Origin: a virus
Strand: one strand, 5' to 3'
UHGV virus genome: UHGV-1430452
Length of the DNA stretch: 64,000 bases
The stretch's first letter is position 1, and each line of letters opens with the position of its first letter. The translations under genes were made by a program, and so were the position numbers. Shown here piece after piece: positions 37,279 to 55,008 of the stretch. The notes beneath the pieces are model-generated. The model was not told the DNA's origin and made no database searches. It was given only the letters and a program-made list of their open reading frames with translations.

Positions 37279-37304
37279 CATTAAAGCCGTTGTATTTTTC
37301 GCGA
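37279..37304 (-). promoter_or_regulatory. conserved promoter-like motif copy followed by a hairpin (attenuator-like)
   Basis: cattaaagccgttgtatttttcgcga. Confidence 0.45.
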
Positions 37305-37310
37305 TTCGTA

Positions 37311-42029: not shown

Positions 42030-42038
42030 ATCTTACCT

Positions 42039-42593
42039 CTAAACAAAAGTATCTAAATACCATAACATTTGAATCCAGATTTCAAATTTACGTAAGTCAT
42101 GATCGCAATTCTTAACTCTGAATAATCCACCGCGGCCGTCGGGTTCATATTCACGTTTGAGAAATGTGTTGATCACTTCTCTAACATACTTTTTATCAAA
42201 CCTGGAATCATACATACCGCCCAAACCGAGATTTACGATCATCTTCCAGAACCATTGTCCTGTTCTATCGCCGACACTCGGATCGTCCATAATATCTTCG
42301 CAACGAATTGCAAGAGCTATTATCATTTCTAGGATACTACATGGACGAGATAACATATCGACGATAACTTCTCGGCTTTCAGGGCTGTATATTTCATAAG
42401 CAAACCGACTTCTCAGATTTTCTCCGTCAGTTTCTCTGTTCTCATCTTTTGGGATGCTGTATCTGAATTCAATCTCATGTAAATATTCCAAAAGCTTTTT
42501 ATATGAATTTGCTTTGGCATATCTACCACTGCATACCAGATTATACATCCACTCGAAATATTCTATCTCAATTTCAGTCCTCGTCACCGCCAA
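42039..42593 (-). CDS. hypothetical protein (184 aa)
   Basis: co-directional ORF. Confidence 0.7.
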   Translation of the reverse strand: MAVTRTEIEIEYFEWMYNLVCSGRYAKANSYKKLLEYLHEIEFRYSIPKDENRETDGENLRSRFAYEIYSPESREVIVDMLSRPCSILEMIIALAIRCEDIMDDPSVGDRTGQWFWKMIVNLGLGGMYDSRFDKKYVREVINTFLKREYEPDGRGGLFRVKNCDHDLRKFEIWIQMLWYLDTFV

Positions 42594-43167
42594 CTACCTC
42601 GCTGTAACTTCCGTAATCTCTAAGGATTTCGTAATATGACTTAAAATTAGGATTTTTGATATACACAGTATCGTCTTCATACTCTCCGAAATGGGAAGCG
42701 AAATCCTCTCCTACCATCTCGTCAATATTACCAATTATTCTGTCACGTTCATCCGCGAGCACTCCATCACCTTCATAATATGTCAGAGTGATCATCGGAT
42801 AATCCTGCTCCCATGTCTCTTCTGGAGCAATTACTTCAGGTCCGCCCATGTCATCTGCTTCCTCCTTTTCTTTCTCTTTCATAGCCTGCTCGTTAATATA
42901 ACCGAGCTCCTGTACTTTATCTCTGATTTCCTGAACAGTAAGTTTATCCGGATTTTCAATACCATCTTTTAAACCTTCCGTTAAAGCCTCTCCAACTTTT
43001 TTACAAGCTTTGCTCTCAGAATAGCGATCCCTAAGGAATTCATTCTCTTCGGTTTTGTCAGCAATGATCTGCTCGTACTTGGTTTTAACTAACTTCCATG
43101 TTACTACCGAACCGATTGCACCTCCAGCTAAGAATATCATTCCTTTAATTAATAAATTCTTGTTCAT
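42574..43167 (-). CDS. membrane-anchored acidic protein (197 aa)
   Basis: N-terminal TM then acidic domain. Confidence 0.65.
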   Translation of the reverse strand: MNKNLLIKGMIFLAGGAIGSVVTWKLVKTKYEQIIADKTEENEFLRDRYSESKACKKVGEALTEGLKDGIENPDKLTVQEIRDKVQELGYINEQAMKEKEKEEADDMGGPEVIAPEETWEQDYPMITLTYYEGDGVLADERDRIIGNIDEMVGEDFASHFGEYEDDTVYIKNPNFKSYYEILRDYGSYSEVVGGDED

Positions 43168-43179
43168 TTGTTTCTCCTT

Positions 43180-43377
43180 TCACTCAGAGTATATAAGTTC
43201 GTACTCACCGCTATCATTTTGTTCCTCGTTTGGATCAGTCTTTACCGATAACACCGTCACTGCTAGTCCACCGAATAACAGTGAAATACTCATAAGAATC
43301 CCTCCTGCGATATGACGTCTTTTCTTTGTATTTAACGAATGGTCTATCATTGATAGAATTCTTCCGAGCTTCTCCAC
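43180..43377 (-). CDS. small membrane protein (65 aa)
   Basis: TM HIAGGILMSISLLFGGLAVTVL. Confidence 0.6.
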   Translation of the reverse strand: MEKLGRILSMIDHSLNTKKRRHIAGGILMSISLLFGGLAVTVLSVKTDPNEEQNDSGEYELIYSE

Positions 43378-43521
43378 TTATATCTCTCCCTTTGTTTTAT
43401 TTAGTTGCTGTTGTAGTTTTTAAAATATGCGAATTCCCCTCAATAGGATGAGTAAGAATCATAAGTCCACTGACAAAACAAATCCCAGCAATAGTGGCAA
43501 ACGTAATTGATAACTTTTCTT

Positions 43522-43773
43522 TCACGTTAAGTCAGTCCTTTCATTCTTTTCGAACGGATTTGGTTGCAACGCTAAAACAAAGTAGTCATCGACGATTTTA
43601 GCACCTTTTACTTTGCCGATTTCAATCATTGCTTTAACTGTTGCAGTTCCACAATTCCATCTCACAGCTGCTTTTTCTGCTGAGATAAATAACGGCGTAA
43701 GATTCTGACTGAATAACTCTTTGTCTTCCAAACCGTTCTCCAAAATATAAATGATTAACTCTCTACCGGTCAT
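43522..43773 (-). CDS. hypothetical protein (83 aa)
   Basis: co-directional ORF. Confidence 0.6.
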   Translation of the reverse strand: MTGRELIIYILENGLEDKELFSQNLTPLFISAEKAAVRWNCGTATVKAMIEIGKVKGAKIVDDYFVLALQPNPFEKNERTDLT

Positions 43774-43925
43774 AAATCTCTCTCCATTTTTGATATATAC
43801 TCTTCAGGAAATATGGAATCGATAGACTTCAAGATGTCATTTAGATCATCTTCATCCATCGGTTCACTTAGAGTACAGGCTACTGCAATTTTTAAGTTAT
43901 TGAGTCTTTCTCGTAAATCGGTCAT
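43770..43925 (-). CDS. small acidic protein (51 aa)
   Basis: missed by track; SD AAGGAGAA; ATGA overlap with next gene. Confidence 0.45.
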   Translation of the reverse strand: MTDLRERLNNLKIAVACTLSEPMDEDDLNDILKSIDSIFPEEYISKMERDL

Positions 43926-44028
43926 TCAATTCTCCTTATACTTACCCTCAGCCTCATGCACGAAGCCAAGGGTAGTCAAACATATCTCTGTAGGGATTCC
44001 CAGACCCGAGATTATCGAGTCCTGACAT

Positions 44029-44967
44029 TCAAATCATGTTGAGAATATCCCCATCCACATTGAAATCAAGAAGAATAGTTCTCTCATAACCGTTCACGAA
44101 GTTACGATTTGCCTCGTTGTAAGTGTTATAGATTCCGAAATCTACGAAATTATCACCTACTGGATGTTTCTCGTCATAAATCCATCCAACAATCTGACCT
44201 GCCTGTGTACGCGGGATTCCGAGCATATCATATACTTCATTCAGGAACAGATGACCTTTCGTTTTCAACATGTCATTTGCATAACGCTGCTGATCTTTAA
44301 GGAACATTAGATTGAATTCAGGATCTTTAGTCCATCCTGTACATCCATCATCGAAGAATTTAGCATAATCGCTGTAACTGTCGAGAGTTGCTACATTTGC
44401 TGTTTTCTTAACAGTAGTTTCTGTACCATCTTCATTTACAACAGTCTCTTCGATTTCTTTTGCTTTGATGTTGTACTTCAGTTCTTTATCAAGCTCTTCA
44501 CCAAATCTCTCAATAACACGACCACGATATTCCTTGAAGCCTTTGTCAATAGTTGCATAAGCGGCTGCAAGTGCTAAGTTACGTTTACGAAGAATATGAT
44601 GACCACTAAGAATAGCAGCGATAGAAACTGTTCCAAGGATTACTGCTGGAGCATAAAGTTTTGCTACCTTTACGGCTGTTTGAGTATACATGATAGTTAA
44701 ATCTTTCTTACCATCTTCTTCTGTGTACTCTTTACCTTCTGGAACCATATCTGGATTTTCCATAAATTCATGAATTTTCTCGATTTTTTCTTTTGGCTCA
44801 GCGAGCACCTCATCGAGTTTAGTAGTTGCTTTACATGCCATTACAGCAGAGCCAACTACACCAACAATACCTGCGCCAACCAAGATTTCAGGGCTATGCT
44901 TTTTAAATTTAAAACCTACACGATGGAGGCTTCTAGTTACTGTGTTCATAATTTCTAATTTTGCCAT
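44029..44967 (-). CDS. two-TM-anchored modular protein (312 aa), paralog family A (N-terminal domain shared with 47042 and 49330; C-terminal domain shared with 21525)
   Basis: N-terminal ...PEILVGAGIVGVVGSAVMACKAT... and C-terminal FFDDGCTGWTKDPEFNLMFLKDQQRY blocks. Confidence 0.75.
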   Translation of the reverse strand: MAKLEIMNTVTRSLHRVGFKFKKHSPEILVGAGIVGVVGSAVMACKATTKLDEVLAEPKEKIEKIHEFMENPDMVPEGKEYTEEDGKKDLTIMYTQTAVKVAKLYAPAVILGTVSIAAILSGHHILRKRNLALAAAYATIDKGFKEYRGRVIERFGEELDKELKYNIKAKEIEETVVNEDGTETTVKKTANVATLDSYSDYAKFFDDGCTGWTKDPEFNLMFLKDQQRYANDMLKTKGHLFLNEVYDMLGIPRTQAGQIVGWIYDEKHPVGDNFVDFGIYNTYNEANRNFVNGYERTILLDFNVDGDILNMI

Positions 44968-44969
44968 GA

Positions 44970-45416
44970 TTATTTACTCTCCTTTTCTAATTCTTTACAA
45001 AATTCCATTAAACTTTTACCGCGAATAAGAATATCGTTTGGTGTTAAAACAATATCAGGTTCCTTGCTCTTATTCGGATTCTCAACATATTCAATAAGCC
45101 TATTGAGATACCACTGAGCTTTCTTTAAGTCCTCAATGCCGTTTTTCTTTTTCCAGCGACATAAATACTTCATTGCATTACCTGTACAAAATGCTTCTAA
45201 TCCGTTAAGACCATCACAAAAGGCCTCGATAACGTCGATAGTTTCGAGACCTGATTTTGACTGATAATGATCCGGATGATTCACCATATCGTTTTTGGCA
45301 ACCCATTGTGTCGGAATACAAAAAGGATCATCGCTCGTTATACAGTGTTTACAAGCTTCCGATCCCATTGTACGACCACAATTGTCACAATCATATTTGC
45401 TTTTTGTTATACTCAT
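44970..45416 (-). CDS. DUF3310-like phage protein
   Basis: NHPDHY...GLETIDVIEAF...GNAMKYLCRWKKK resembles the DUF3310 HPxHY signature. Confidence 0.6.
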   Translation of the reverse strand: MSITKSKYDCDNCGRTMGSEACKHCITSDDPFCIPTQWVAKNDMVNHPDHYQSKSGLETIDVIEAFCDGLNGLEAFCTGNAMKYLCRWKKKNGIEDLKKAQWYLNRLIEYVENPNKSKEPDIVLTPNDILIRGKSLMEFCKELEKESK

Positions 45417-45426
45417 AGTTTTCCTT

Positions 45427-45735
45427 TCAAATATAATCTTTTACCTTCTTGCCAGTGTTATAAATCTCTCGTTCGATTCCTAGACCAAAAGGTAATCTAA
45501 CACTCTCTAATTCAGACAGCATTACATAACCCCATTCCCATTCAAAAAGATGACAATAACCGTATAATAACCAGTCACCGTCATCTTGTTTTTCACCTTC
45601 TGTAATTAACCAGGTACCTGTTCCAGTTGGATTAAAATACTTAACTACTACATCAGCTTCTTCCATCTTTCCTTCCTGAGAACCAATCGGATAATTTTCA
45701 AAAGTTTTCTCCAATTCATCGGTCATTAGTAGCAT
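45427..45735 (-). CDS. conserved phage protein (102 aa)
   Basis: co-directional ORF; motifs YFNPTGTGTWLITE, WEWGYV. Confidence 0.65.
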   Translation of the reverse strand: MLLMTDELEKTFENYPIGSQEGKMEEADVVVKYFNPTGTGTWLITEGEKQDDGDWLLYGYCHLFEWEWGYVMLSELESVRLPFGLGIEREIYNTGKKVKDYI

Positions 45736-45767
45736 CGTAACGACACATCCTTATTGTGTATTTTTAT

Positions 45768-46376
45768 TTAGTCAATTGGCATAGCTTTTGGCAACTTAAG
45801 AACATATCCATCTTTAATTCTCACAGTCTCGGCAGTACGAATGTTTGTCCATCCGTATTTGTTACTTGTATACGGTGCTGGAAGAGCAGCCATATCATAC
45901 ATATCAGCTACAGTAACAAAGCCATATGTGTCTATAAGATCTACCATCTGTTCTCTTACAGCCTCACATTCACCGCGAGAATCAAACACAAGATCATCAT
46001 AATCAAACCGGCCTTTTGCACGTAGACCACCATCACGTCGATCGTCTTTCTTATCGTCATAATAACTTCGGTAAGATATCTTGTTCCCAGTCTTACGCTT
46101 ATTACTTCCAGAACCGCCGTAAAGAATCATGTCGGCACCATCAGTAACAATATCCAAGATTGCTTTCTTAATTGCTGGAATCAAAACATCCAAGACAATA
46201 TATGATTTAACATTAGCTGCATCTTCGGAAATGAACATGCTTGCTAATTTACGTCCTTCGTTTTTCTTCGTTTTCACTTTACCATTAACAACTTTCTGCA
46301 CCCTCTTTTCTTTCGTAGGCGCTTCAGTTGCTTTTTCTTCTTTGCTCTTATGAGAATTCGGTTGATATTCTCTCAT
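45768..46376 (-). CDS. hypothetical basic protein (202 aa)
   Basis: co-directional ORF. Confidence 0.7.
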   Translation of the reverse strand: MREYQPNSHKSKEEKATEAPTKEKRVQKVVNGKVKTKKNEGRKLASMFISEDAANVKSYIVLDVLIPAIKKAILDIVTDGADMILYGGSGSNKRKTGNKISYRSYYDDKKDDRRDGGLRAKGRFDYDDLVFDSRGECEAVREQMVDLIDTYGFVTVADMYDMAALPAPYTSNKYGWTNIRTAETVRIKDGYVLKLPKAMPID

Positions 46377-46390
46377 TTTCTTATCACCTC

Positions 46391-46594
46391 TTAATTAACC
46401 ATTTTGATTTCACCAGGCAATGTTATCCTCACACCTGGCAATAAATTTAATTGTTTCTTAGCCTGATAAGTTAAGTTACTCCTGGCTTTTTGTTTTGATG
46501 AAGCACTTGTTTCACCCTTCCAACGATCGATCATGCATTTATCAAACGACATTACAGGACCTTCGTATGTGTATTTGTCATACTCTTCGTTCAT
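46391..46594 (-). CDS. hypothetical protein (67 aa)
   Basis: co-directional ORF. Confidence 0.55.
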   Translation of the reverse strand: MNEEYDKYTYEGPVMSFDKCMIDRWKGETSASSKQKARSNLTYQAKKQLNLLPGVRITLPGEIKMVN

Positions 46595-46666
46595 TGTTAC
46601 CTCCTAGAAACAAAAAGAGAAGAGTCCCATAATTGAGACCCGTCTCTTTTTCGAATACTTTAAATG

Positions 46667-46972
46667 TTATTTCTCGGCTGCTTCCTCGTCGATTTCTTCC
46701 TCGATAACGGATTCATCTTCAGGTTCATCAACCTCTTCAACCTCGACCCATTTCAGTCTTTTCTTGGCTTTCTTCTTTTTAGGCTGCTCGTCTTTCTTTT
46801 TGGATTTGATTTTCTTGTAAGCTGCTGCTCCTAATGCAACTGCTCCAGCAATCAATCCTACTGTCAGACCGATAGCCTTTCCAGATCCACCTTCTTCTAC
46901 TGAATAGTCTTCCGGCTCCAGGTCAATAACCTCAACCTCGTTATCCATTACTTCGTCTTTGATTTCGCTCAT
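46667..46972 (-). CDS. membrane protein with Lys-rich tail (~101 aa); start trimmed to SD-supported ATG
   Basis: SD AAAGGAGGA before ATG at 46972; TM LTVGLIAGAVALGAAAY. Confidence 0.6.
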   Translation of the reverse strand: MSEIKDEVMDNEVEVIDLEPEDYSVEEGGSGKAIGLTVGLIAGAVALGAAAYKKIKSKKKDEQPKKKKAKKRLKWVEVEEVDEPEDESVIEEEIDEEAAEK

Positions 46973-47011
46973 AGCAAGATCCTCCTTTAAAATAATTTTA
47001 AGTATTTTCTT

Positions 47012-47036
47012 CATAAAGCACTGTGTATTTTTCGCG
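47012..47036 (-). promoter_or_regulatory. conserved promoter-like motif copy
   Basis: cataaagcactgtgtatttttcgcg. Confidence 0.5.
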
Positions 47037-47041
47037 TATGA

Positions 47042-47869
47042 TTAATAGTAGCTATCGAAACCATATTCCGGAGGCATCAGATGATCAATAACAATACACG
47101 GTTCATTATCTTCCGTAATTTGAGCACTATATCTCACATCGATTTTGCCTTTATCGATTCTCCAACCGATGCTATTACCAACTTCGGTATGCTTAAGACC
47201 AATTTCGTCATAGAAATCATTCAGAGAAATATACATCTCGTTACCGTTGATCATTCTCTCATTAAGAGTAAGAACAGCATTTTTAATCTTGTCGATATCC
47301 GATCTGAAATATCTGTCGGAATGACTGTCATAACACAACGTGTTACCTTTACCTGTCATGATAATCTGAGTGTCTGCAACCGGATGTTCTTCAACTTGCT
47401 TCTTAGCGACTTTATCTCTGATGTTATTTTCCTTCTTCTCTCCGATAGTCTCTACCACTTTCTCTCTGTAGTCAGACAGTGCTGTTGTAGATAACTGATA
47501 TGCTGTTGCCAATGCTGCGTTACGTCTTACATGTACGGAATTAGCACCGATAAGACAAGCGACTGACGCAATGCCAGTGATAGCTGCTGGAATATAAGGT
47601 TTCCAAGCTGCTTTTACTGTTTCGACAGGTGTGAGATTTAAAGCGTTTCTTTCGTCTTCTTCTGTGAAAATACCGCCTTCATGAGCTTCTTTCTCTTTAA
47701 ACTTCTTCTCTTCCTCGATTAACTCCATAGCTTTTGGTGTTGCTTTTACTGCAAGCACAACAGTAGATATCATACCTGCGATACCAATGCCAGTAAGAAT
47801 TTCCGGACTGCGTTTTTTCATTACATATTTTGCAGTGTTTAAAAATTTTGTTACATTTGGTTTGTTCAT
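47042..47869 (-). CDS. two-TM-anchored modular protein, paralog family A (275 aa)
   Basis: N-terminal domain aligns with 44029 and 49330. Confidence 0.75.
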   Translation of the reverse strand: MNKPNVTKFLNTAKYVMKKRSPEILTGIGIAGMISTVVLAVKATPKAMELIEEEKKFKEKEAHEGGIFTEEDERNALNLTPVETVKAAWKPYIPAAITGIASVACLIGANSVHVRRNAALATAYQLSTTALSDYREKVVETIGEKKENNIRDKVAKKQVEEHPVADTQIIMTGKGNTLCYDSHSDRYFRSDIDKIKNAVLTLNERMINGNEMYISLNDFYDEIGLKHTEVGNSIGWRIDKGKIDVRYSAQITEDNEPCIVIDHLMPPEYGFDSYY

Positions 47870-47957
47870 TTTTTATCTCCTTTCATGAACAGTTAAATTG
47901 TTTTTACCAAAAATCCCACTCGGGAAAATTTTGATCTTGAAAAAATAGAAATCGAAA

Positions 47958-48029
47958 AGAAACAGTGTAGGACTCGAACCCACAACCTACAGATATAAGT
48001 CTGTTGCTCTACCAATTGAGCTAACTGTT
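47958..48029 (-). tRNA. tRNA with atypical anticodon loop, probable anticodon TAT (Ile)
   Basis: acceptor AAACAGT/ACTGTTT, D-arm GCTC-AATTGGTA-GAGC, T-loop TTCGAGT; anticodon stem ACAG/CTGT with loop containing CTTATAT (6 or 8 nt by hand). Confidence 0.6.
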
Positions 48030-48034
48030 TCTTC

Positions 48035-48061
48035 TCATAATAGCGCTTGTAAATTTCGCGA
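48035..48061 (-). promoter_or_regulatory. conserved promoter-like motif copy directly upstream of the tRNA
   Basis: cataatagcgcttgtaaatttcgcgaa. Confidence 0.55.
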
Positions 48062-48106
48062 ATATAGATCTTCAGAAACAAAAAAGAAGAACCCCGAAGG
48101 ATTCTC

Positions 48107-48277
48107 CTAGACTTTCTTCTGAAGCTCAGAAACTGCTTTCTTCAACTCTTCAAACTCCTTTTCTTTTTTCTGATCTGATAATGCACCTGCTATAGCCATA
48201 ATACCTGTTACTACAACACCTGCATATTTTCCGACAGACTTCAGAAGCGGATTATTGATAATACCTTTGAATTTCAT
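48107..48277 (-). CDS. small glycine-zipper membrane protein (56 aa)
   Basis: missed by track; SD AAGGAGACGAG; KYAGVVVTGIMAIAGALS. Confidence 0.5.
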   Translation of the reverse strand: MKFKGIINNPLLKSVGKYAGVVVTGIMAIAGALSDQKKEKEFEELKKAVSELQKKV

Positions 48278-48301
48278 TTTTCTCGTCTCCTTTCTTCATT
48301 C

Positions 48302-48327
48302 CATTAAAGGAAATGTTTTTGTCGCGA
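48302..48327 (-). promoter_or_regulatory. conserved promoter-like motif copy
   Basis: cattaaaggaaatgtttttgtcgcga. Confidence 0.55.
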
Positions 48328-48364
48328 TACCGGTTTCGCTATATCAAAATATCATCGTTTATCG

Positions 48365-48853
48365 TCACCCGTGTATGGGTAAATCCATTTTGATTTTGTC
48401 AGGATTCATAATGAGGATACTATCGCAGTCCCAGCCATACAGATCCCAATATAACTGATGATCAGCTGATAAATTTAACTCGATGGCATCATAGCCAAGT
48501 TCAATGCATTTCTCGAAATCTATCAGTGTACTTATTGATTTCCATACCGGGTCAGCAATTGTTGGAAGTTCCTTTAATTTTTCTACGGAATCTATAACGA
48601 ATATATTGGCTTCCGGAAGAGTGAATATGAAACTATTTTCTTCAATACATTCACGAAAATTTTCTCTTTCACACCAGTCTTTCCAACCTAATTTGGCATC
48701 TATCGGACTAGCCCAAAGACCTCCTCTAGGTTTAACCCAGCATTGCTCATTTTGAATAGGTTTAAATAAGTTTGGATTAAAAGTTGCATGTCCGTAATGA
48801 ATATAAATCTTGTCTTGCATATTACTATCCTTTCGTTCAAAAACATATGTCAC
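48365..48853 (-). CDS. hypothetical protein (162 aa)
   Basis: co-directional ORF. Confidence 0.7.
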   Translation of the reverse strand: MTYVFERKDSNMQDKIYIHYGHATFNPNLFKPIQNEQCWVKPRGGLWASPIDAKLGWKDWCERENFRECIEENSFIFTLPEANIFVIDSVEKLKELPTIADPVWKSISTLIDFEKCIELGYDAIELNLSADHQLYWDLYGWDCDSILIMNPDKIKMDLPIHG

Positions 48854-48860
48854 TTAGTAA

Positions 48861-48893
48861 CAAAAAGAAAAGAGGCCCCTATTTCAGGACCTC
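48861..48893 (-). terminator. rho-independent terminator overlapping the stop of 48879..49082
   Basis: stem GAGGUCC/GGGCCUC then UUUUCUUUUUG. Confidence 0.6.
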
Positions 48894-49082
48894 AAATTTC
48901 TCTTTTTTATTTTTCTTGATTTTATTCTCAACGGATTCTTTCCATTGATTCGCTTTAGTTGCCACTGCCTGTCTGACTTCTGGAATAGCAAGTGCCGAAC
49001 CGACAACCGTTACTGCCGGCACAACAATCTGTCCAATCCAAAGTCTTACTTCTCTCATAGCATCAATATTTTTGCGTTTCAT
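48879..49082 (-). CDS. small membrane protein (67 aa)
   Basis: TM IVVPAVTVVGSALAI; own motif and terminator. Confidence 0.65.
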   Translation of the reverse strand: MKRKNIDAMREVRLWIGQIVVPAVTVVGSALAIPEVRQAVATKANQWKESVENKIKKNKKEKFEVLK

Positions 49083-49114
49083 AGTTTTATCCTCCTTTAA
49101 AAATATAATCTTTT

Positions 49115-49140
49115 CATTAAAGGCGTTGTTTATTTAGCGA
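49115..49140 (-). promoter_or_regulatory. conserved promoter-like motif copy
   Basis: cattaaaggcgttgtttatttagcga. Confidence 0.55.
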
Positions 49141-49349
49141 GTGTAATGGATATGCTCATTGTTTAATTCGTCGAGATGTTTAATAAAATCTAAATATCTT
49201 TTATTTCGTCTATTCTCCACAAAGTTTATAACTAACCAAGCAATCCCTACGATAGGCAAGCCAACGAATACTAATAGAAATAGTAAGCATGTAATCATAG
49301 AAACAAGCGTATTCATAAATCTTCTCCTTTCAATACTCTTCGTAATCAA
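49134..49349 (-). CDS. small membrane protein (71 aa)
   Basis: two hydrophobic segments; track start may overextend into the motif. Confidence 0.55.
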   Translation of the reverse strand: MITKSIERRRFMNTLVSMITCLLFLLVFVGLPIVGIAWLVINFVENRRNKRYLDFIKHLDELNNEHIHYTR

Positions 49350-50106
49350 TGAACGGCTCTGTGAAATCTACAATATAACATTCAATACCGTCGTCCATTT
49401 CTACTTTTGTATGGTGGAAATATAGCCAACCATCCCAGTACATTTCATACATCTGAGCTGCGGACCAACCCATAAATTCACCGTAATCCTGTCGATCAAT
49501 CTCTAGTAAATCGTAATAATCGTTTAAAGATGCACCACCGGATTGAGATAGCATTTTATTAATCTCATACTCTGCTCTCAATTGAGTTTCTTTCGTCACA
49601 CGGTAATAACGTTTGGAATATTCATCGTAGAATAGTGTTTTGCCATCCTCGTATTCGTCGTCATATTCTTCTTTGTCTTCTTCCTCGTAATGGTCTTTTG
49701 CTACAGCAGCACGAATGAGTTTGTCTCCGTCTTCACCATATAACTTTTTAACTTTGTTTTTGTACTCTTTGTGAGTTTGGTCTAGTAAGGCATAAGCAGA
49801 TGCGATGGCTGCTTGGGAATGTTTGTTTAATAGATTCGCGCCAAATATGCAAGCTAGGGTTCCTGTTCCAATCAATAAGGAAGGAATATATGTTGGTCCT
49901 GCTACTCGAATAGTCTCCCATTTTGTTAATTCATCTCCTTTCTCTTCTTCAGCTAGTTCAATAAGTTCCATTGCTTTCGGAGTAGCTTTAACCGCCATTA
50001 CAGCTGTACCTACCACTCCGGCAGCTCCTAATACTGTTAATATAGTAGAGCTGTTTTTCTTTACGAATCTTTTCGAAACTGTTAGTAAGTCATTCATTTC
50101 CAGCAC
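49330..50106 (-). CDS. two-TM-anchored modular protein, paralog family A (258 aa)
   Basis: N-terminal domain aligns with 44029 and 47042. Confidence 0.75.
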   Translation of the reverse strand: MLEMNDLLTVSKRFVKKNSSTILTVLGAAGVVGTAVMAVKATPKAMELIELAEEEKGDELTKWETIRVAGPTYIPSLLIGTGTLACIFGANLLNKHSQAAIASAYALLDQTHKEYKNKVKKLYGEDGDKLIRAAVAKDHYEEEDKEEYDDEYEDGKTLFYDEYSKRYYRVTKETQLRAEYEINKMLSQSGGASLNDYYDLLEIDRQDYGEFMGWSAAQMYEMYWDGWLYFHHTKVEMDDGIECYIVDFTEPFIDYEEY

Positions 50107-50218
50107 GCTCCTTGGCGATAAATTTGGTAAAAATAAAAAGAGAAAGAAAAGAGTCAGCTTGTTGTGTAAACCAAGTCTAACTCAATTCTTTTTGTCATTA
50201 TCCGAAATAACAATATCC

Positions 50219-50245
50219 CATAACAGGTGATGTAATTTTCGCGAA
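50219..50245 (-). promoter_or_regulatory. conserved promoter-like motif copy
   Basis: cataacaggtgatgtaattttcgcgaa. Confidence 0.55.
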
Positions 50246-50248
50246 TCC

Positions 50249-50479
50249 CTACTGCTCAAAAAATAAAACTACATCTACCGGATCTTTGAAGTGCTGCTCC
50301 TCCACTACTTCTTTAAATTCTTCAAATGATTCCGGTTCGTATTCTTGTAAATATAAAATCTGTTCAAGCAATCTTCCGTAAAATCCTTGAGAATTAGATA
50401 GCATTTTTACCACACCAATGACTTGTTCAACATCATAACCGTCTGCTTTCTTTTCCATAGCGTTTGCCATTTTGAACAC
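50249..50479 (-). CDS. hypothetical acidic protein (76 aa)
   Basis: SD AAAGGAG; preceded by long structured leader. Confidence 0.65.
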   Translation of the reverse strand: MFKMANAMEKKADGYDVEQVIGVVKMLSNSQGFYGRLLEQILYLQEYEPESFEEFKEVVEEQHFKDPVDVVLFFEQ

Positions 50480-50648
50480 TCCTTTAATTGGTTTTTGATA
50501 AAAATAAAAAGAGAATACAATGACTTCAGGGTCGGCCCAACGAAAACCGTTGCCCGGTGGGTAGCATGTTTTATTACGTTATTACGTGCCGCTACGCCTT
50601 CGTGTCTCACCACTGGATTTCCACCAGTATCTATCCATTGCTTTCTCT
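50480..50648 (-). ncRNA. candidate structured 5' leader / cis-regulatory RNA (~165 nt, GC-rich) between promoter motif and start of 50249..50479
   Basis: hairpins ACTGG-N7-CCAGT and CAACG-N5-CGTTG, followed by U-rich tract just upstream of the SD. Confidence 0.35.
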
Positions 50649-50675
50649 CATAATAGGTGATGTAATTTTCGCGAA
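50649..50675 (-). promoter_or_regulatory. conserved promoter-like motif copy (consensus match)
   Basis: cataataggtgatgtaattttcgcgaa. Confidence 0.55.
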
Positions 50676-50702
50676 TAGAAAAAGAAAATGCCTAGTTTTT
50701 AA

Positions 50703-50966
50703 CTAGACAAATTCTTTAATAATTATTGTTCCACCAACTACATCGATTTTTATTTTATTCATCGCTTTCAACATACTAGCCACTTTTTGCACTGGTAACT
50801 TACTTGTGAAACCATAGAACACCAAGTCGCCCATGGTATATACATGCCCTACTGAATACTTAACTTCAATATCGGCTGTATATTTGCCAAGGCAATCCAT
50901 TGCTCCTAAATTTTTCACAACTTCGTTTTTATTCGCGCATAAAGTAATTTCATATTTAGTAAACAT
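50703..50966 (-). CDS. hypothetical protein (87 aa)
   Basis: SD AAGGAGGA; motif upstream. Confidence 0.65.
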   Translation of the reverse strand: MFTKYEITLCANKNEVVKNLGAMDCLGKYTADIEVKYSVGHVYTMGDLVFYGFTSKLPVQKVASMLKAMNKIKIDVVGGTIIIKEFV

Positions 50967-51001
50967 ATAAATTCCTCCTTATTCGATTTCATTGTTTTTC
51001 T

Positions 51002-51028
51002 CATAATAGGTGATGTAATTTTCGCGAA
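51002..51028 (-). promoter_or_regulatory. conserved promoter-like motif copy
   Basis: cataataggtgatgtaattttcgcgaa, identical to 50649 copy. Confidence 0.55.
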
Positions 51029-51050
51029 AACAAAAGAGAAAGGGCCCATG

Positions 51051-51191
51051 TTACTGAGCCACTTTCGCTTTCTTATGATTTTTAACTGCTTTCTTAGAAA
51101 CCTCTACTGCTTTATTCACTGCATCACTTGCCAAACTACCGACTACCAATCCGCCAGCAATCTCAATAATGTGTCTAACTAAAACATTCAT
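51051..51191 (-). CDS. small glycine-zipper membrane protein (46 aa)
   Basis: missed by track; SD AGGAGGAA; IIEIAGGLVVGSLAS. Confidence 0.5.
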   Translation of the reverse strand: MNVLVRHIIEIAGGLVVGSLASDAVNKAVEVSKKAVKNHKKAKVAQ

Positions 51192-51227
51192 TTTAGATTC
51201 CTCCTGTTAAGCAATTTATTATCTTTC

Positions 51228-51254
51228 CATAATAGGACTTGTAATTTTCGCGAA
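51228..51254 (-). promoter_or_regulatory. conserved promoter-like motif copy
   Basis: cataataggacttgtaattttcgcgaa. Confidence 0.55.
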
Positions 51255-51256
51255 TT

Positions 51257-51285
51257 AAAAGAAAAGACACCGTGTTTCAGGTGCC
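51257..51285 (-). terminator. rho-independent terminator directly followed by promoter motif
   Basis: stem GGCACC/GGUGUC (G-U) then UUUUCUUUU. Confidence 0.6.
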
Positions 51286-51512
51286 TAATCCTCTGAATCA
51301 ACCATTTGTTCAATTTTCAGTAATACTTTCTGATCAATTTCTCCATCCGCATTGATATGAAATCGTATTTTACCATCCTTCATCTCAGCTTCTATCTCAC
51401 TAATACGGATGTCTGGTTTGACTCCAATATTTTTGTATATAGCTCTAGATATAAGTTTGGCTACCATACCTCTCATAAATCTAGTAGATAATTTAATTTT
51501 CATTTCGTCCAT
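51285..51512 (-). CDS. hypothetical protein (75 aa)
   Basis: co-directional ORF. Confidence 0.65.
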   Translation of the reverse strand: MDEMKIKLSTRFMRGMVAKLISRAIYKNIGVKPDIRISEIEAEMKDGKIRFHINADGEIDQKVLLKIEQMVDSED

Positions 51513-51539
51513 AATTACCTCCTCCTTCTAGGTTGTTTC

Positions 51540-51567
51540 CTATAATAGGGGAAGTTTAAGTCGCGAA
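51540..51567 (-). promoter_or_regulatory. conserved promoter-like motif copy
   Basis: ctataataggggaagtttaagtcgcgaa. Confidence 0.55.
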
Positions 51568-51598
51568 AACAAAAGAAAGAGCAGTGGGTGACACCGCT

Positions 51599-51706
51599 CT
51601 AACTGTTTCTCAAAAATCGAATGAGAATCCATACAAGCCATAATCCTCCGGTTGCAAATACTAATACAAAGTCGATAAGCAATCCGAATAATCCACGCTT
51701 TTTCAT
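51599..51706 (-). CDS. small membrane peptide (35 aa)
   Basis: missed by track; SD AAAGGAGAAG; terminator hairpin overlaps its 3' end. Confidence 0.45.
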   Translation of the reverse strand: MKKRGLFGLLIDFVLVFATGGLWLVWILIRFLRNS

Positions 51707-51733
51707 GATTATCTTCTCCTTTCATTTTCTTTT

Positions 51734-51758
51734 CACAATAGGAGAAGTTTTTATCGCG
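51734..51758 (-). promoter_or_regulatory. conserved promoter-like motif copy
   Basis: cacaataggagaagtttttatcgcg. Confidence 0.5.
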
Positions 51759-51809
51759 TGCATTATCAGTTCCTTCAAATACAAAATAAAAGAGACCAAT
51801 CGGCCTCTC

Positions 51810-51959
51810 TTACATGTTTCGTTTAGAAAGTTCTTCTGCTACCTTCTTTGCAATCTTTTCATCCAATAACTTATCTGTACTTTGTTTCCCTGCGAATGTT
51901 AATCCCGCACTAACAATAGCTGTTATAAGCTTTGCAATTCTAATTACTTTTGGTGACAT
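51810..51959 (-). CDS. small glycine-zipper membrane protein (49 aa)
   Basis: missed by track; SD AAGGAGGT; KLITAIVSAGLTFAG. Confidence 0.5.
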   Translation of the reverse strand: MSPKVIRIAKLITAIVSAGLTFAGKQSTDKLLDEKIAKKVAEELSKRNM

Positions 51960-51974
51960 AAATATACCTCCTTT

Positions 51975-52000
51975 CTATAATAGAAGAGGTTTAAATCGCG
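51975..52000 (-). promoter_or_regulatory. conserved promoter-like motif copy
   Basis: ctataatagaagaggtttaaatcgcg. Confidence 0.5.
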
Positions 52001-52350
52001 CGTCTATCGAAGCAAGTTTCCCATCGTTCTCGCTTAACTGGCTTCATTTTCATAGTCCACATCATTTGTCGGACCGTTACGGTGGGATATAAACCGTTCT
52101 CAGGTTCTCCCGATCTATCCTCGAAGAACTCCAGGAATCTTTCATGTAAATATAAAGTGTCTGTCAGCCACGGATCAATCTCGCCCCACCAGGTATTTTT
52201 CGTCGCTGGATCATATCGCTGCTGAATAACAGCTAGTCCTTTTCGTCCCATTTTGAATAAAGTACATTTACTGTAAACTGGATGATCACATTCATAAGTT
52301 TCTCCGTACATCGATACATAAACTTTTGGCTTTTCGTAGTGATAACGCAT
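51991..52350 (-). CDS. hypothetical protein (119 aa)
   Basis: co-directional ORF. Confidence 0.65.
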   Translation of the reverse strand: MRYHYEKPKVYVSMYGETYECDHPVYSKCTLFKMGRKGLAVIQQRYDPATKNTWWGEIDPWLTDTLYLHERFLEFFEDRSGEPENGLYPTVTVRQMMWTMKMKPVKRERWETCFDRRAI

Positions 52351-52445
52351 ATTACTATTATCCTTTCTTTAACTTTAGTTATATAACTTTTGTTTAAACT
52401 CTCGCGTTAGGAAATATAAAAGAAGAAAAAAAAAGAAAAGACTAT

Positions 52446-52525
52446 GGGAATAGCGCGGGATTCGAACCCACGACGTTGAGTTTCCTCTTATTCTTCCATT
52501 AGAACTAACCGTCTTAACTATTCCA
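52446..52525 (-). other. tRNA-like element: canonical acceptor stem and T-arm (GGGTTCGAATCCC) but no resolvable anticodon arm; pseudo-tRNA or tRNA-derived structured RNA
   Basis: acceptor GGAATAG/CTATTCC and T-loop TTCGAAT found; every 5-bp/7-nt anticodon-arm register checked by hand fails; promoter motif directly upstream. Confidence 0.4.
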
Positions 52526-52572
52526 GAGACTTCTTCCGATATATTGCTATACGGGAATTGTTCTCTTCTTTT

Positions 52573-52600
52573 CTATAATAGGAAATGTTTATTTAGCGAA
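52573..52600 (-). promoter_or_regulatory. conserved promoter-like motif copy upstream of the tRNA-like element
   Basis: ctataataggaaatgtttatttagcgaa. Confidence 0.55.
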
Positions 52601-52643
52601 AGAAAATAGCCCAGGCGTTTAACCCGAGCTAATTCTCTTAAAC

Positions 52644-53012
52644 TTATTCGTTACCATTGAGTTTCTCAATAGCTTCAACCTTCCTGCTGTCAAACATCGT
52701 AGAATTTACAATACTCATCACAGCTTTGTAATATGTTTTCGGCTGATCCTTCTTGAGCAACTCTATCGCCTGAACTTTACGACTATCAAACATGCTGCTG
52801 TTCATTATCGAAGCTACCGCACTGTCATAATCTGCTGTGCTAAATATATCCGCTAATAAATCAACTTCATATGTGTCCTGTTTTCGTTTCTTTTCACGCA
52901 ATACAACTGCCACAATTGGAATCGCAATACCAATCCCATTTGCTACATATTCTGTGATTTTCCATAAACTCTCTTTTGTTTTCTCGCTAGTTAAAACTTC
53001 TTTGATTTTCAT
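52644..53012 (-). CDS. membrane-anchored protein with internal sequence repeat (122 aa)
   Basis: duplicated block MNSSMFDSRKVQAIELL / VNSTMFDSRKVEAIEKL. Confidence 0.65.
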   Translation of the reverse strand: MKIKEVLTSEKTKESLWKITEYVANGIGIAIPIVAVVLREKKRKQDTYEVDLLADIFSTADYDSAVASIMNSSMFDSRKVQAIELLKKDQPKTYYKAVMSIVNSTMFDSRKVEAIEKLNGNE

Positions 53013-53039
53013 ATCAATAACCTCCTATAAGTTTATTCT

Positions 53040-53066
53040 CATAACAGGCGTTGTAATAATAGCGAA
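53040..53066 (-). promoter_or_regulatory. conserved promoter-like motif copy
   Basis: cataacaggcgttgtaataatagcgaa. Confidence 0.5.
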
Positions 53067-53112
53067 AAAGAAGAGCCTAAGTCATTTCGACTCAAGCCCT
53101 TCCATTTTGAAA

Positions 53113-53496
53113 TTACTTTTTTGGGAGTAACTTCTGAATGAATCCTCGACCCATTATTGTTGTGATGGTTCCAGTCTCTTCGAATTTGATAGACTTGATT
53201 GTGCCCCAGATAGTAACCGCTGTCGGTATAACAATACCCGCTCCTGTTAAGCAATTCTTAACAACTCGATCTTTTCGTTCATCTTTAAGCTGCTCTGCTC
53301 TTAATTCAGCATCAACATTTTGCTGATCCTTTTTAAGTTCTTGTTCAGCCTTAATTTTCTCAAGTTCGATTGCTCGATCACATAACTTTGTCAGGCCGTC
53401 TACCGTATTTTTGTACTTATCTGTACCTACTTCAAGTTTTCCTAACTCTTCGAATTCGTCCTGAATCTCATCTTTTAATAATGTTTCAATACTCAT
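53113..53496 (-). CDS. coiled-coil membrane protein (~127 aa); start at SD-supported second ATG
   Basis: SD AAGGAGGAG before ATG at 53496; C-terminal TM. Confidence 0.65.
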   Translation of the reverse strand: MSIETLLKDEIQDEFEELGKLEVGTDKYKNTVDGLTKLCDRAIELEKIKAEQELKKDQQNVDAELRAEQLKDERKDRVVKNCLTGAGIVIPTAVTIWGTIKSIKFEETGTITTIMGRGFIQKLLPKK

Positions 53497-53523
53497 TTTG
53501 AACTCCTCCTTATATTCGTATTT

Positions 53524-53549
53524 CATAATAGGGAATGTTATTTTTGCGA
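53524..53549 (-). promoter_or_regulatory. conserved promoter-like motif copy
   Basis: cataatagggaatgttatttttgcga. Confidence 0.5.
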
Positions 53550-53747
53550 CAGATCTACTCTAAGCATTACGTGTTTATCTTTTCGTAGCTTATATGCCTT
53601 ACCACTATCTATTTCTAAAAATAAATACGGTGCTGAGTCTGGATCTGAGCTGTCTACTTTCAGTGTGCCGATTGGCTTTTTTACTAAGAGTGTCGTTGCC
53701 ACAACTGCACCTATCAGCATACCTACTAATAAAAATAAAAGTTCCAC
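53538..53747 (-). CDS. small membrane protein (~70 aa); probable GTG start after SD AAGGAGGAAG
   Basis: track start lacks SD and overlaps motif; TM LLFLLVGMLIGAVVATTLLV. Confidence 0.5.
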   Translation of the reverse strand: MELLFLLVGMLIGAVVATTLLVKKPIGTLKVDSSDPDSAPYLFLEIDSGKAYKLRKDKHVMLRVDLSQK

Positions 53748-53861
53748 TACGCTACTTCCTCCTTTCTTCAATAGAATTGTTTTATCGAAAACTCCCTCCC
53801 GGGAAATTTTCACTTTAGAATTTTAATATTGTTTCCTGTCACCTATGTACGGAATATCTAT

Positions 53862-53890
53862 TCTAGATTAGAGTTTGTTTTAATCTAGGT
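53862..53890. promoter_or_regulatory. 8-bp-arm palindrome CTAGATTA-N10-TAATCTAG; operator-like
   Basis: perfect inverted repeat read directly. Confidence 0.45.
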
Positions 53891-53891
53891 T

Positions 53892-53918
53892 AAAGAAAAA
53901 AGAGAGCCTAAGCCCTCT
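53892..53918 (-). terminator. rho-independent terminator
   Basis: stem GAGGGC/GCUCUC loop UUAG then U6. Confidence 0.55.
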
Positions 53919-54144
53919 TATCTGTCATAAAACTTGGTAACTGAAGTTCTGGTTTATAAGTCATTAACTCTGCTTCATATAGCCTCATGATAATAGCTAT
54001 CTCATCTTCATGAATACTTTTTATCAACTTAAAGACTTTATCATAATCAACATCTGATTTATTCTTCATTTGACAAATATAATCCACGAGTCTGGTATAC
54101 TTATCATCCGCAGTTCCTATCATTGCCGCAAATTTAACTTCCAT
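53908..54144 (-). CDS. hypothetical protein (78 aa)
   Basis: co-directional ORF. Confidence 0.65.
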   Translation of the reverse strand: MEVKFAAMIGTADDKYTRLVDYICQMKNKSDVDYDKVFKLIKSIHEDEIAIIMRLYEAELMTYKPELQLPSFMTDKRA

Positions 54145-54178
54145 AATTTATCCTCCTTAAATTTAAAGTTTTATGTTT

Positions 54179-54206
54179 CTATAAAGTAGTATGTATTTTT
54201 GGCGAA
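54179..54206 (-). promoter_or_regulatory. conserved promoter-like motif copy
   Basis: ctataaagtagtatgtatttttggcgaa. Confidence 0.5.
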
Positions 54207-54225
54207 AAAGAAAAGAAGAGACCGA

Positions 54226-54426
54226 TTAGGCCTCCTCTTTAAATAACTCAGGGTATTTCTCCATCAGTTCTTTTCTGTCTCGTTCAATGTCTTTTTCTAT
54301 ATGCTCGATTTCTGCTTCCAATTTACCTGTGCTTTTACCTAAACGGTAACCCAGATAAGATCCTACAGCATAAACCAATCCGGCATATAAACCAAAACCT
54401 AAACCAGCTTTTAAATTAGCTTTCAT
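54226..54426 (-). CDS. small glycine-zipper membrane protein, YtxH-like (66 aa)
   Basis: GLGFGLYAGLVYAVGSYLGYRLG then coiled coil. Confidence 0.65.
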   Translation of the reverse strand: MKANLKAGLGFGLYAGLVYAVGSYLGYRLGKSTGKLEAEIEHIEKDIERDRKELMEKYPELFKEEA

Positions 54427-54452
54427 GATAGATCACTCCTATAATTTATTCT

Positions 54453-54478
54453 CATAATAGGCGTTGTTTTAGTCGCGA
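54453..54478 (-). promoter_or_regulatory. conserved promoter-like motif copy
   Basis: cataataggcgttgttttagtcgcga. Confidence 0.55.
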
Positions 54479-54657
54479 TCATCAAACGGTACTTCTATGT
54501 TTTCAATCTCGTCAGAAATAATCTCCCCGTCACCGATAAGTAGTTCTCTTTTGTTTATTTGATTAACGCTAGTTCGATATATACCCTCAGCTACTGCTAG
54601 TCCGATAAATGTACTTACTCCCCAAAGAATTCCTTTGATTAATTTATTAGTATCCAT
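54469..54657 (-). CDS. small membrane protein (~62 aa); start trimmed to internal ATG
   Basis: SD-like GAGGAAAA before ATG at 54657; TM ILWGVSTFIGLAVAEGIY. Confidence 0.5.
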   Translation of the reverse strand: MDTNKLIKGILWGVSTFIGLAVAEGIYRTSVNQINKRELLIGDGEIISDEIENIEVPFDDRD

Positions 54658-54737
54658 TTTGAATTTTCCTCTCATGATATATTCTCTATTGGAAATCAAA
54701 AGGAAGAGTATCTGCATAGATACCCGCCTTTTTGTTT

Positions 54738-54953
54738 TTAATTATTGCTTGTGGTCCAACCCATGTTGTTCTGTGTGAATGAGTTGTTAATGCCGTTGAT
54801 AGTTCTTACTCTATCCTCGTACAATGAATTGTCGCTAATGATGCTAACTCCGAATTTCCATTTGAAGTCTGGAATTTCGTTAGCTGCTTTCATAGCTTCA
54901 TCCCATTTCTCAAGGAAGACTTCTATCGCATATCCTCTCTCTACACTATCCAT
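54738..54953 (-). CDS. hypothetical protein (71 aa)
   Basis: co-directional ORF; motif upstream. Confidence 0.6.
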   Translation of the reverse strand: MDSVERGYAIEVFLEKWDEAMKAANEIPDFKWKFGVSIISDNSLYEDRVRTINGINNSFTQNNMGWTTSNN

Positions 54954-54980
54954 GTCGTTACCCTCCTTTATAATAATTTT

Positions 54981-55008
54981 CTATAAAGGAGCGTGTAATT
55001 TTCGCGAA
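54981..55008 (-). promoter_or_regulatory. conserved promoter-like motif copy
   Basis: ctataaaggagcgtgtaattttcgcgaa. Confidence 0.55.

Follow-up and report, generated by a model that had tools for sequence, protein, structure and literature searches.

The mascRNA and the species 1 and 2 RNAs of the phage T4 tRNA cluster are small, partly tRNA-folded molecules that are processed by tRNA enzymes and do not decode. A tRNA-like domain is also found in the bacterial Y RNA YrlA, in which the two termini pair as the Ro-binding stem, a closed stem-loop takes the part of the 'acceptor' and a GNCGAA motif is present (PMC4201824). The known phage Y-like RNAs lie directly upstream of a Ro gene (PMC12135203, PMC12282133). 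Phage tRNAs have been reported to substitute for host tRNAs that defence systems cleave, and in this way to rescue infection (PMC10264068, PMC11464382, PMC11555353). Here we analysed a 64,000-nucleotide stretch of the virus genome UHGV-1430452 (hereafter the window), and we describe a tRNA-like element on its minus strand, at 52445..52524. Because this element keeps the top half of a tRNA and carries a conserved non-tRNA core at the place of the anticodon arm, we regard it as a tRNA mimic, neither a working nor a dead tRNA. In our judgement it is probably a self-contained phage gene for a non-decoding, tRNA-derived structured RNA.

The element reads, with its segments set apart, GGAAUAGU UAA GACG GUUA GUUCU AAUGGA AGAAU AA GAG GAAA CUC AA CGUC GUGGG UUCGAAU CCCGC GCUAUUCC CA. 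Its termini pair as an 8-bp helix running from G1-C78 to U8·G71, in which GGAAUAG faces CUAUUCC and U8·G71 forms the eighth pair. In standard tRNA numbering this corresponds to a 7-bp acceptor stem (GAAUAGU/GCUAUUC) plus a G-1:C73 pair, followed by U8-A9. The 5' strand of the helix, GGAAUAGU, covers position -1 and positions 1-7 and lies at 52517..52524, and the 3' strand, GCUAUUCC, covers positions 66-72 and C73 and lies at 52447..52454; the CCA end is not encoded. The helix stacks on a perfect 5-bp T stem with the 7-nt loop UUCGAAU (T arm GUGGG-UUCGAAU-CCCGC, 52455..52471). The 11-mer GGTTCGAATCC occurs twice in the window, in the element and in a tRNA-Met gene, against no occurrence in 100 shuffles.

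Between the 5' acceptor strand and the T arm lies a purine-rich core of 45 nt, UAAGACGGUUAGUUCUAAUGGAAGAAUAAGAGGAAACUCAACGUC (52472..52516), which stands in place of the D and anticodon arms. The minimum free energy (MFE) fold of the element (-24.2 kcal/mol, z = -2.8) comprises the acceptor helix, a GACG/CGUC helix around two small hairpins, and the T arm. The enclosed hairpins are predicted to be one of 5 bp with the 6-nt loop AAUGGA and a second of the form GAG-GAAA-CUC. An anticodon arm with a 5-bp stem and a 7-nt loop is not formed, AUGGA and GAGGA being unable to pair. The standard register would allow a weak 3-bp D stem, AGA/UCU (A10-U25, G11-C24 and A12-U23), with the GG-containing loop CGGUUAGU. 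This stem is a competitor of the MFE fold, and its positions are invariant across the variants. An earlier examination of the letters without database searches (the sequence-only reading) had recognized a 7-bp acceptor stem opening with GGAATAG and a textbook T arm, both of which are confirmed here with an eighth pair added. It had also held that neither a D arm nor an anticodon arm could be folded in any register. This is correct for the anticodon arm and slightly too strong for the D arm, since the weak 3-bp stem provides an alternative.

Searches with tRNA detectors agree with this anatomy. ARAGORN called two tRNAs in the window and none at the element, with default settings as well as with -ps, and Rfam at gathering thresholds returned only the two tRNAs over the window and nothing at the element. 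Under relaxed conditions, ARAGORN at 70% stringency gave a poor cloverleaf, in which one stem contains a mismatch and the loop has 6 nt, and the 'anticodon stem' of which would be broken by the natural variant U27C, a change that is neutral in the MFE fold. Calls made at the element in the intron and mitochondrial modes were rejected as implausible, as they ignore the acceptor/T helix. A permissive Rfam scan of 52350..52700 gave only chance-level best matches, namely tRNA-Sec with 19.2 bits (cut-off 47), which is the best match in the tRNA clan, and Vault with 17.9 bits. Neither program made a high-scoring canonical tRNA call, the outcome that would have contradicted the hand fold of the sequence-only reading.

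Other classes of RNA fared no better. The ARAGORN search for tmRNA was negative at the element, and the pair at 3:70 is A-U, not the G3:U70 of tmRNA. Of the tRNA-Sec features, only the 8+5 stack of acceptor and T stems is present. The tRNA-His-type G-1:C73 pair (G1:C78 in the element) occurs in three of the four variants and is G·A in the fourth (locus L098), and a GUG anticodon is absent. No open reading frame (ORF) of at least 20 aa was found inside the element on its own strand. The idea of a small peptide encoded by AUG-GAA-GAA-UAA in the core was likewise discarded, the frame being lost by U27C in two variants. Stop-codon recoding, considered as an explanation of the odd tRNAs, was also set aside, as reading through TAG, TGA or TAA gave no clear gain in ORF length.

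The surroundings of the element point to an independent transcription unit, since a terminator lies upstream, the element has its own promoter motif, and a U tract and the next promoter follow downstream. At the 5' boundary of the unit, an intrinsic-terminator-like hairpin with a T run, detected in a terminator scan at 52607..52631, ends the upstream gene (52644..53012), and its sequence is kept in loci L011 and L098. A copy of the phage promoter motif, CGCTAAATAAACATTTCCTATTAT, of the type TTCGCK-N14-TATTAT, follows at 52575..52598. The motif CGCKAAANNNACAN7TWAT has 15 copies in the window, all on the minus strand and all intergenic ahead of genes, against 0 expected, and the same promoter type is present in L095, L098 and prophages. 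To judge from the motif, the transcript would start at about 52570..52574, and the element begins ~48 nt 3' of this site. The resulting leader of ~48 nt contains a hairpin, UUCC-C-GUAUA-GCAA-UAUAU-C-GGAA (52534..52557), with a GNRA loop and a conserved C·C mismatch, that is backed by compensatory changes. A linker visible in the alignment, GAAGUCUCU (52525..52533), joins the hairpin to the tRNA-like body, and the acceptor/T helix would be expected to direct RNase P cleavage to the 3' end of this linker.

On the other side of the body, the U-rich tract CUUUUCUUUUUUUUUCUUCUUUU (52418..52440) probably marks the end of the transcript; all variants have a T-rich tract after the element. Beyond the U tract lies the promoter of the next gene (CGCGAGA at 52406), which encodes a 119-aa protein. 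The promoter claimed in the sequence-only reading was thus found to be one of the 15 copies, and the limits given there were too narrow, the leader with its hairpin and the downstream U-rich tract having to be added. Pairing between leader and trailer, as in the terminal stem of a Y RNA, was predicted by folding and rejected, because the paired segments are purine and pyrimidine runs of low complexity and L095 does not conserve the pairing.

TTCGCG and TATTAT are 14 nt apart, a spacing unlike that of a sigma-70 promoter, and the promoter may be read by the phage's own YonO-type polymerase. This single-chain RNA polymerase is encoded at 305..3475 on the minus strand (PHROG 4291) and has a C-terminal helix-turn-helix that matches sigma-70 region 4 and other helix-turn-helix families, which suggests a built-in promoter-recognition domain. 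Ahead of the early genes, the motif takes the form TTCGCGAAAWWTACA-N4-CCTATTATGRGA, with the 15 minus-strand sites spread over 5923..55006 (for example, 50650..50673 and 27761..27784).

We next consider conservation. The element was found in four variants, all from human-gut metagenomes: that of the window (equal to L096), that shared by L011, L093 and L097, and those of L098 and L095. Identical copies are present in several human-gut assemblies. Exact and degenerate pattern scans yielded two real element contigs among viral contigs and three contigs in metagenomes, while no match to the element or core pattern was found in 185,579 species genomes. Loci L224 and L225 were dismissed as chance pattern matches lacking any covariance-model match. 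The covariance model R1, run over ~1.75 Mb of related loci, recovered the same variants only, everything else scoring at most 36 bits.

Pairs were counted in an alignment of the four variants with their flanks, using 500 shuffles and slid registers as controls. Across the 34 pairs, 99.3% of the cells are paired (96.9% for the acceptor helix), and the observed pairing and compensation were reached in 1 of the 500 shuffles; slid registers were 38-52% paired. Four pairs change on both sides, two in the leader hairpin and two in the T stem. All of these concern L095, where the T stem GUGGG/CCCGC becomes AUAGG/CCUAU through two double changes and one single compensatory change, and where two U-A pairs of the leader hairpin become C-G with the hairpin remaining 100% paired. 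The hairpin loop stays GNRA in three variants (GCAA, GCGA and GAAA). In the acceptor helix, U8·G71 is converted to U-A in L011, and L098 alone has lost the G1:C78 pair. Conservation in the module is highest in the core, where the four variants differ by U27C, G41A and a 2-nt insertion. All three changes fall in predicted loops, so covariation speaks neither for nor against the core helices.

The context of the module varies. In L098 a different gene lies downstream. In L095 the flanks are unalignable and the module sits between the lysin gene and the serine integrase, where lysis and lysogeny modules adjoin; 78 bp separate it from the end of the integrase gene. There it stands behind a TTCGCG-N14-TTTAAT promoter of the type that this phage uses elsewhere, and the 5' part of the leader differs. 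The leader hairpin motif was not found elsewhere in the window or in 223 loci, and occurs only beside the element. The pattern in the four variants, as read from the alignment, is that of a selected RNA gene, not of a decaying tRNA.

Relatives of the element emerged from the downstream gene. Genes related to it (51991..52350, 119 aa, PHROG 17256) occur in Faecalibacterium phage FP_oengus, in 244 IMG/VR contigs and in 58 bacterial genomes or metagenome-assembled genomes. The latter are mostly from Lachnospiraceae, Oscillospiraceae and other Clostridia, among them [Ruminococcus] torques, Hungatella hathewayi, Enterocloster lavalensis and Roseburia hominis. Many of the fetched loci contain one tRNA-like gene that starts 1-5 nt past a TATTAT-like hexamer of the same promoter type. 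We define this family of promoter-fused tRNA-like genes by a TTCGCK-N14-TATTAT promoter directly upstream, a -1:73 pair, U8-A9, and a T arm followed by a T run; examples are 47958..48031 in the window and L010:1748-1819 in FP_oengus. A T run follows the body of the family genes and CCA is not encoded. The window's own member, on the minus strand with its promoter at 48037..48060, was detected with ARAGORN and Rfam and has a 6-nt 'anticodon' loop, CUUAUA. Further members, which come from Oengus-like phages and from Lachnospiraceae and Oscillospiraceae prophages, are spread over L010:1748-1819 and many of the loci L011-L090 and L166-L223.

The anticodon arms of this family are, on their sequences, mostly 3 nt too short or carry large inserts. 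In 17 of 39 unique sequences the segment from the D arm to the T arm measures 20 nt instead of 23, giving a stem with a tetraloop or a 6-nt loop, and other members have inserts of 37-54 nt in the middle segment. ARAGORN labels most of the genes 'tRNA-???' or assigns them improbable anticodons such as AAA and AUU, with Phe(AAA) among the labels. A pair between positions -1 and 73 is present in 44 of 49 unique sequences, as G:C in 35 of them and as A:U in the other 9, which makes the 8-bp acceptor helix a covarying hallmark of the family. The element itself has the promoter, the -1:73 register, U8-A9, and the T arm with a T run, and its acceptor sequence GAAUAGU matches the GAAUAGA of a tRNA-Thr-like gene in L049 at 6 of 7 positions. 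From the shared register, -1:73 pair, U8-A9, T arm and L049-like acceptor, we read the element as a derived paralogue of this family. A further strongly derived promoter-fused gene, L027:7630-7698, has an 8-bp acceptor (UGAUAGGU/GCCUAUUA), a T arm and an unrelated 36-nt middle, which indicates that the D and anticodon arms were lost more than once in this phage group. In the literature searched, we found no published description of a promoter-fused, anticodon-defective family.

Taken together, we propose the following course of events. The phage-type promoter would give a ~160-nt transcript composed of a short purine-rich 5' end, the GNRA-capped hairpin, the 80-nt body and the U-rich end. The body retains the tRNA top half, namely the 7-bp acceptor with the -1:73 pair, U8-A9, the T arm and a D-like region in which GG is present, and the 45-nt invariant core takes the place of the D and anticodon arms. 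The element would originate from the promoter-fused tRNA-like genes of Oengus-like temperate phages that infect gut Clostridia, genes most of which are already without a usable anticodon loop. Through its acceptor/T helix, the RNA may be a substrate for RNase P, 3' trimming and CCA addition and may gain tRNA-like stability, and it would be unable to read codons. The parts retained are those seen by RNase P, 3'-end processing, the CCA-adding enzyme, T-loop modifiers, EF-Tu and the synthetases that read the acceptor. The invariant core, and perhaps the leader hairpin too, would then be displayed to a protein partner by a scaffold with the shape of a tRNA. The most plausible partner would be a host factor that binds or targets tRNAs and is occupied or diverted early in infection. 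We thus infer that the element acts as a mimic of the tRNA top half carrying a specific binding core, and a decoy role is attractive by analogy with the counter-defence provided by phage tRNAs. We screened both strands of the window for antisense targets of the 45-nt core, and the best duplex (-32.1 kcal/mol) lies within the range of shuffled cores (-30.6 +/- 2.4 kcal/mol), so no target stands out.

A wider proposal, which we put forward tentatively, is that Oengus-like temperate phages of gut Clostridia carry an undescribed class of anticodon-less, promoter-fused tRNA mimics, in which the -1:73 pair is obligatory and the anticodon arm changes rapidly or has been replaced. Within this class the element would be a specialised form with a grafted core and a GNRA hairpin. 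The mimics would inhibit, or serve as decoys for, host factors that recognise the body or the acceptor end of tRNAs, for example defence nucleases that target tRNAs or toxins that modify the CCA end.

Several points weigh against the interpretation of the element as a selected, tRNA-derived structured RNA. It is built on only four closely related variants, and the three core helices never vary and are neither supported nor refuted. Core conservation could partly reflect recent common ancestry. The T arm of L095 is identical to that of other promoter-fused family members, and the compensatory changes in the T stem could therefore stem from one recombination event. Simple tRNA mimicry does not explain a conserved leader upstream of the expected RNase P site, and the neighbouring small proteins gave no functional lead in Pfam or PHROGs.

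How do other explanations account for the same data? Of the possibilities named in the sequence-only reading, a tRNA-derived regulatory or structured RNA is supported as to its kind by the promoter, the terminator-like U tract, the conserved structure and the modular location, while a decayed tRNA is disfavoured. A pseudogene whose D and anticodon arms degenerated free of selection would explain why all tRNA detectors run fail here, why related phages contain eroded-looking copies (truncated in L169 and L013, and of an odd form in L027) and why the distribution is narrow. Yet the T stem and leader hairpin show compensatory double changes, an acceptor U·G pair became U-A, and pairing stands at 99.3%; the supposedly degenerate 45 nt are the most conserved part, otherwise invariant between copies whose flanks have diverged past alignment; the promoter and U tract are kept in three genomic contexts; and the leader hairpin, found nowhere else, travels with the element. 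Decay is for these reasons very unlikely in our view. We give slightly more, though still little, credence to the body being a charged, acceptor-only substrate with the identity set of tRNA-His, put to non-decoding use or titrating an aminoacyl-tRNA synthetase, EF-Tu or an acceptor-end toxin. The E. coli HisRS charges minihelices carrying G-1:C73, a pair present in three of the four variants, and -1:73 covaries across the family (44 of 49). The G-1·A73 of L098 and the A-1:U73 of nine family members are not His identity, however, CCA is not encoded, the 48-nt leader would first need to be removed precisely, and charging leaves the invariant core unexplained.

Alternatively, the tRNA-like fold could be a processing or termination signal, like mascRNA at the 3' end of MALAT1, with the 48-nt leader, set free by RNase P, as the active RNA or with the structure serving to insulate neighbouring transcription units. 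The covarying leader hairpin, unique to this locus, and the position of the unit between a terminator and a promoter would suit such a role. A pure signal, however, would have no need of a body core more conserved than the leader, as is the case here. The leader of L095 has a different 5' part, and the duplex scan, made with the core only, gave no window target above shuffles. We rate this account as improbable as decay. Least probable by far is a DNA-level site, such as an attP remnant or a recombination site derived from a host tRNA gene, in place of an RNA gene. The proximity of the L095 copy to a serine-integrase gene (78 bp from its end) is what recommends it, whereas the acceptor strands and T stem covary as RNA helices, a dedicated promoter and U tract are present, the window copy lies 4 kb from the integrase inside an early-gene array, and the core is unmatched in the 185,579 species genomes.

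The sequence-only reading had speculated that the element is a Y-RNA-like partner of a Ro60/TROVE-like protein encoded at 25967..27535. In such a role it would tether the protein or gate it, in the manner of YrlA with its tRNA-like module. The guess about the protein proved right, as Ro60 accounts for the top seven fold matches. The 522-aa protein (minus strand) matches DUF2828, DUF7788 and PHROG 850 'RNA-binding protein', and its mycobacteriophage homologues are annotated 'Ro-like' ('Ro-like RNA binding protein'). Although sequence searches of the PDB, with the single sequence and with a profile, gave nothing relevant, an AlphaFold model (pLDDT 76) had Ro60 in all of its top seven Foldseek matches in the PDB, with probability 1.0, TM scores of 0.38-0.57 and full-length alignments, including Xenopus and human Ro60, Deinococcus Rsr and the Ro60 of Thermus phage phiLo. 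By this model, the protein has the Ro60 fold (TROVE + vWA). Homologues of the protein are present in 711 phage records, including Escherichia, Salmonella, Listeria, Staphylococcus and Mycobacterium phages.

The link to the element, in contrast, did not hold, and we consider a Y-RNA role unlikely. Besides the fold of the protein, it could appeal to the tRNA-like domains of bacterial Y RNAs (PMC4201824), to the tRNA-like arrays with acceptor-stem ends that precede the Ro-like genes of related contigs, and to the lack of a tRNA body in the window RNAs adjoining the Ro-like gene. Against this, neither the Y_RNA nor the YrlA model of Rfam matched at E<=10 over 52350..52700. The ends of the element form a tRNA acceptor stem, not a Ro-binding stem, and the GNCGAA and ACAGCAA motifs are absent. 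The element lies 25 kb from the Ro-like gene, whereas known phage and bacterial Y RNAs adjoin theirs. Within 1.5 kb of 68 Ro-like genes, model R1 found nothing above 26 bits, compared with more than 100 bits for true homologues. The two IMG/VR element contigs are not among the 66 Ro-like loci found in a search that reaches close relatives only. FP_oengus has the family tRNA-like gene, and a Ro-like gene was not found in its first 50 kb.

Better candidates for Ro partners are the RNAs directly upstream of the Ro-like gene. A candidate RNA of ~92 nt at 27668..27759 (minus strand) has a long terminal stem, for which its 5' and 3' ends pair, and finishes with a U run (-28.4 kcal/mol, z = -4.3). 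Two more hairpins follow it, all three units in 27545..27759 carry AACAGCAA, and a promoter lies at 27784. Rfam gave no match to these units, which are candidate Y-like partner RNAs or a structured 5' UTR (untranslated region). The element is without the motif AACAGCAA/UAACAGCAA of the Ro-adjacent RNAs. In related gut phage contigs, the region ahead of the Ro-like gene is occupied by arrays of 111-124-nt genes, which the tRNA model scores at 44-58 bits (L110:1069-1421, L125:254-1419, L108:648-1415, L101:540-1414, L100:882-1323 and L153:881-999). The cloverleaves of these genes are complete, their anticodon loops are enlarged by an insertion of ~45 nt that contains a hairpin and then UAACAGCAA, and some of the genes end in CCA. 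The inserts could be intron-like, or could be Ro-binding modules grafted onto tRNAs. The YrlA model gave two weak matches in the arrays, at 27-33 bits against a cut-off of 69. In L226, the next gene downstream of a Ro-like relative with 98% identity (3140-3418) matches Pfam Tad8 (PF25189), and a Bro-N-type gene takes this place in the window. The surroundings of the Ro-like gene thus have the look of a variable accessory island.

The window as a whole belongs to a phage, with genes for the YonO-type RNA polymerase, a primase-polymerase, tail-fibre proteins, a serine integrase and a CI-like repressor, and its genes lie almost entirely on the minus strand. Comparison of its DNA with 50,697 phage records in near and distant modes gave no match. 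Three paralogous DUF6353 genes (PHROG 2152; 44029..44967, 47042..47869 and 49330..50106, minus strand) stand among the small early genes and the odd tRNA-like gene.

Having no usable anticodon loop, the tRNA-like RNAs described here cannot replace host tRNAs. They are nevertheless conserved, each has a dedicated promoter of the early type, and phages of dominant human-gut Clostridia carry them widely. If they do serve as tRNA-shaped decoys or scaffolds, they would represent a new class of tools in phage-host conflict and a natural example of the 'tRNA scaffold' of RNA engineering. Anticodon-less decoys would extend the counter-defence by phage tRNAs from replacement tRNAs to non-decoding mimics. 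Moreover, as tRNA finders skip the element and give the family odd labels such as 'tRNA-???' and Phe(AAA), virome annotation mislabels or misses such genes.

Finally, we compare the element with known systems. With the canonical tRNA (Rfam RF00005) it has in common an acceptor helix formed by its ends, the UUCGAAU T loop, U8 and a GG in the D region; it differs in having no 5-bp/7-nt anticodon arm, only a weak 3-bp D stem, and scores below the ARAGORN and Rfam thresholds. From its closest relatives, the promoter-fused family, it has kept the promoter type, the acceptor register, a near-identical T arm, a non-canonical anticodon arm and the location in an early-gene region. Its leader is, however, ~48 nt long with a conserved hairpin, compared with 0-5 nt in the family; AGAC...UUCU stands in place of the family's conserved GCUC/GAGC D arm; its middle is a 45-nt invariant, non-homologous core where the family has a short hairpin; and it is much rarer, with four variants.

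Like tRNA-His and tRNA-Sec, the element stacks an 8-bp acceptor on a 5-bp T stem, with the G-1:C73 of bacterial tRNA-His, yet it has neither a GUG nor a UCA anticodon, nor the 6-bp D stem and long variable arm of the tRNA-Sec type. The tRNA-like domain of tmRNA has the same topology, in which the acceptor 5' strand, a linker, a long helix in place of the anticodon arm (GACG/CGUC in the MFE fold of the element), the T arm and the acceptor 3' strand follow one another, although G3:U70 and a tag reading frame are absent from the element and its insert is 34 nt as opposed to ~250 nt. YrlA (RF02553) and the phiLo Yrl1/2 RNAs are likewise tRNA mimics unable to decode in genomes that encode a Ro60-fold protein, whereas YrlA adjoins rsr and has ends that form a Ro-binding stem, a closed 'acceptor' and GNCGAA, none of which is seen in the element. 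In being small and non-decoding with part of a tRNA fold, it resembles mascRNA and the T4 species 1 and 2 RNAs, to which it bears no sequence relationship and from which it is set apart by its own promoter and conserved non-tRNA core. On present evidence, the element is therefore not a tRNA, a pseudogene or a Y RNA, but a variant of the known tRNA mimics.

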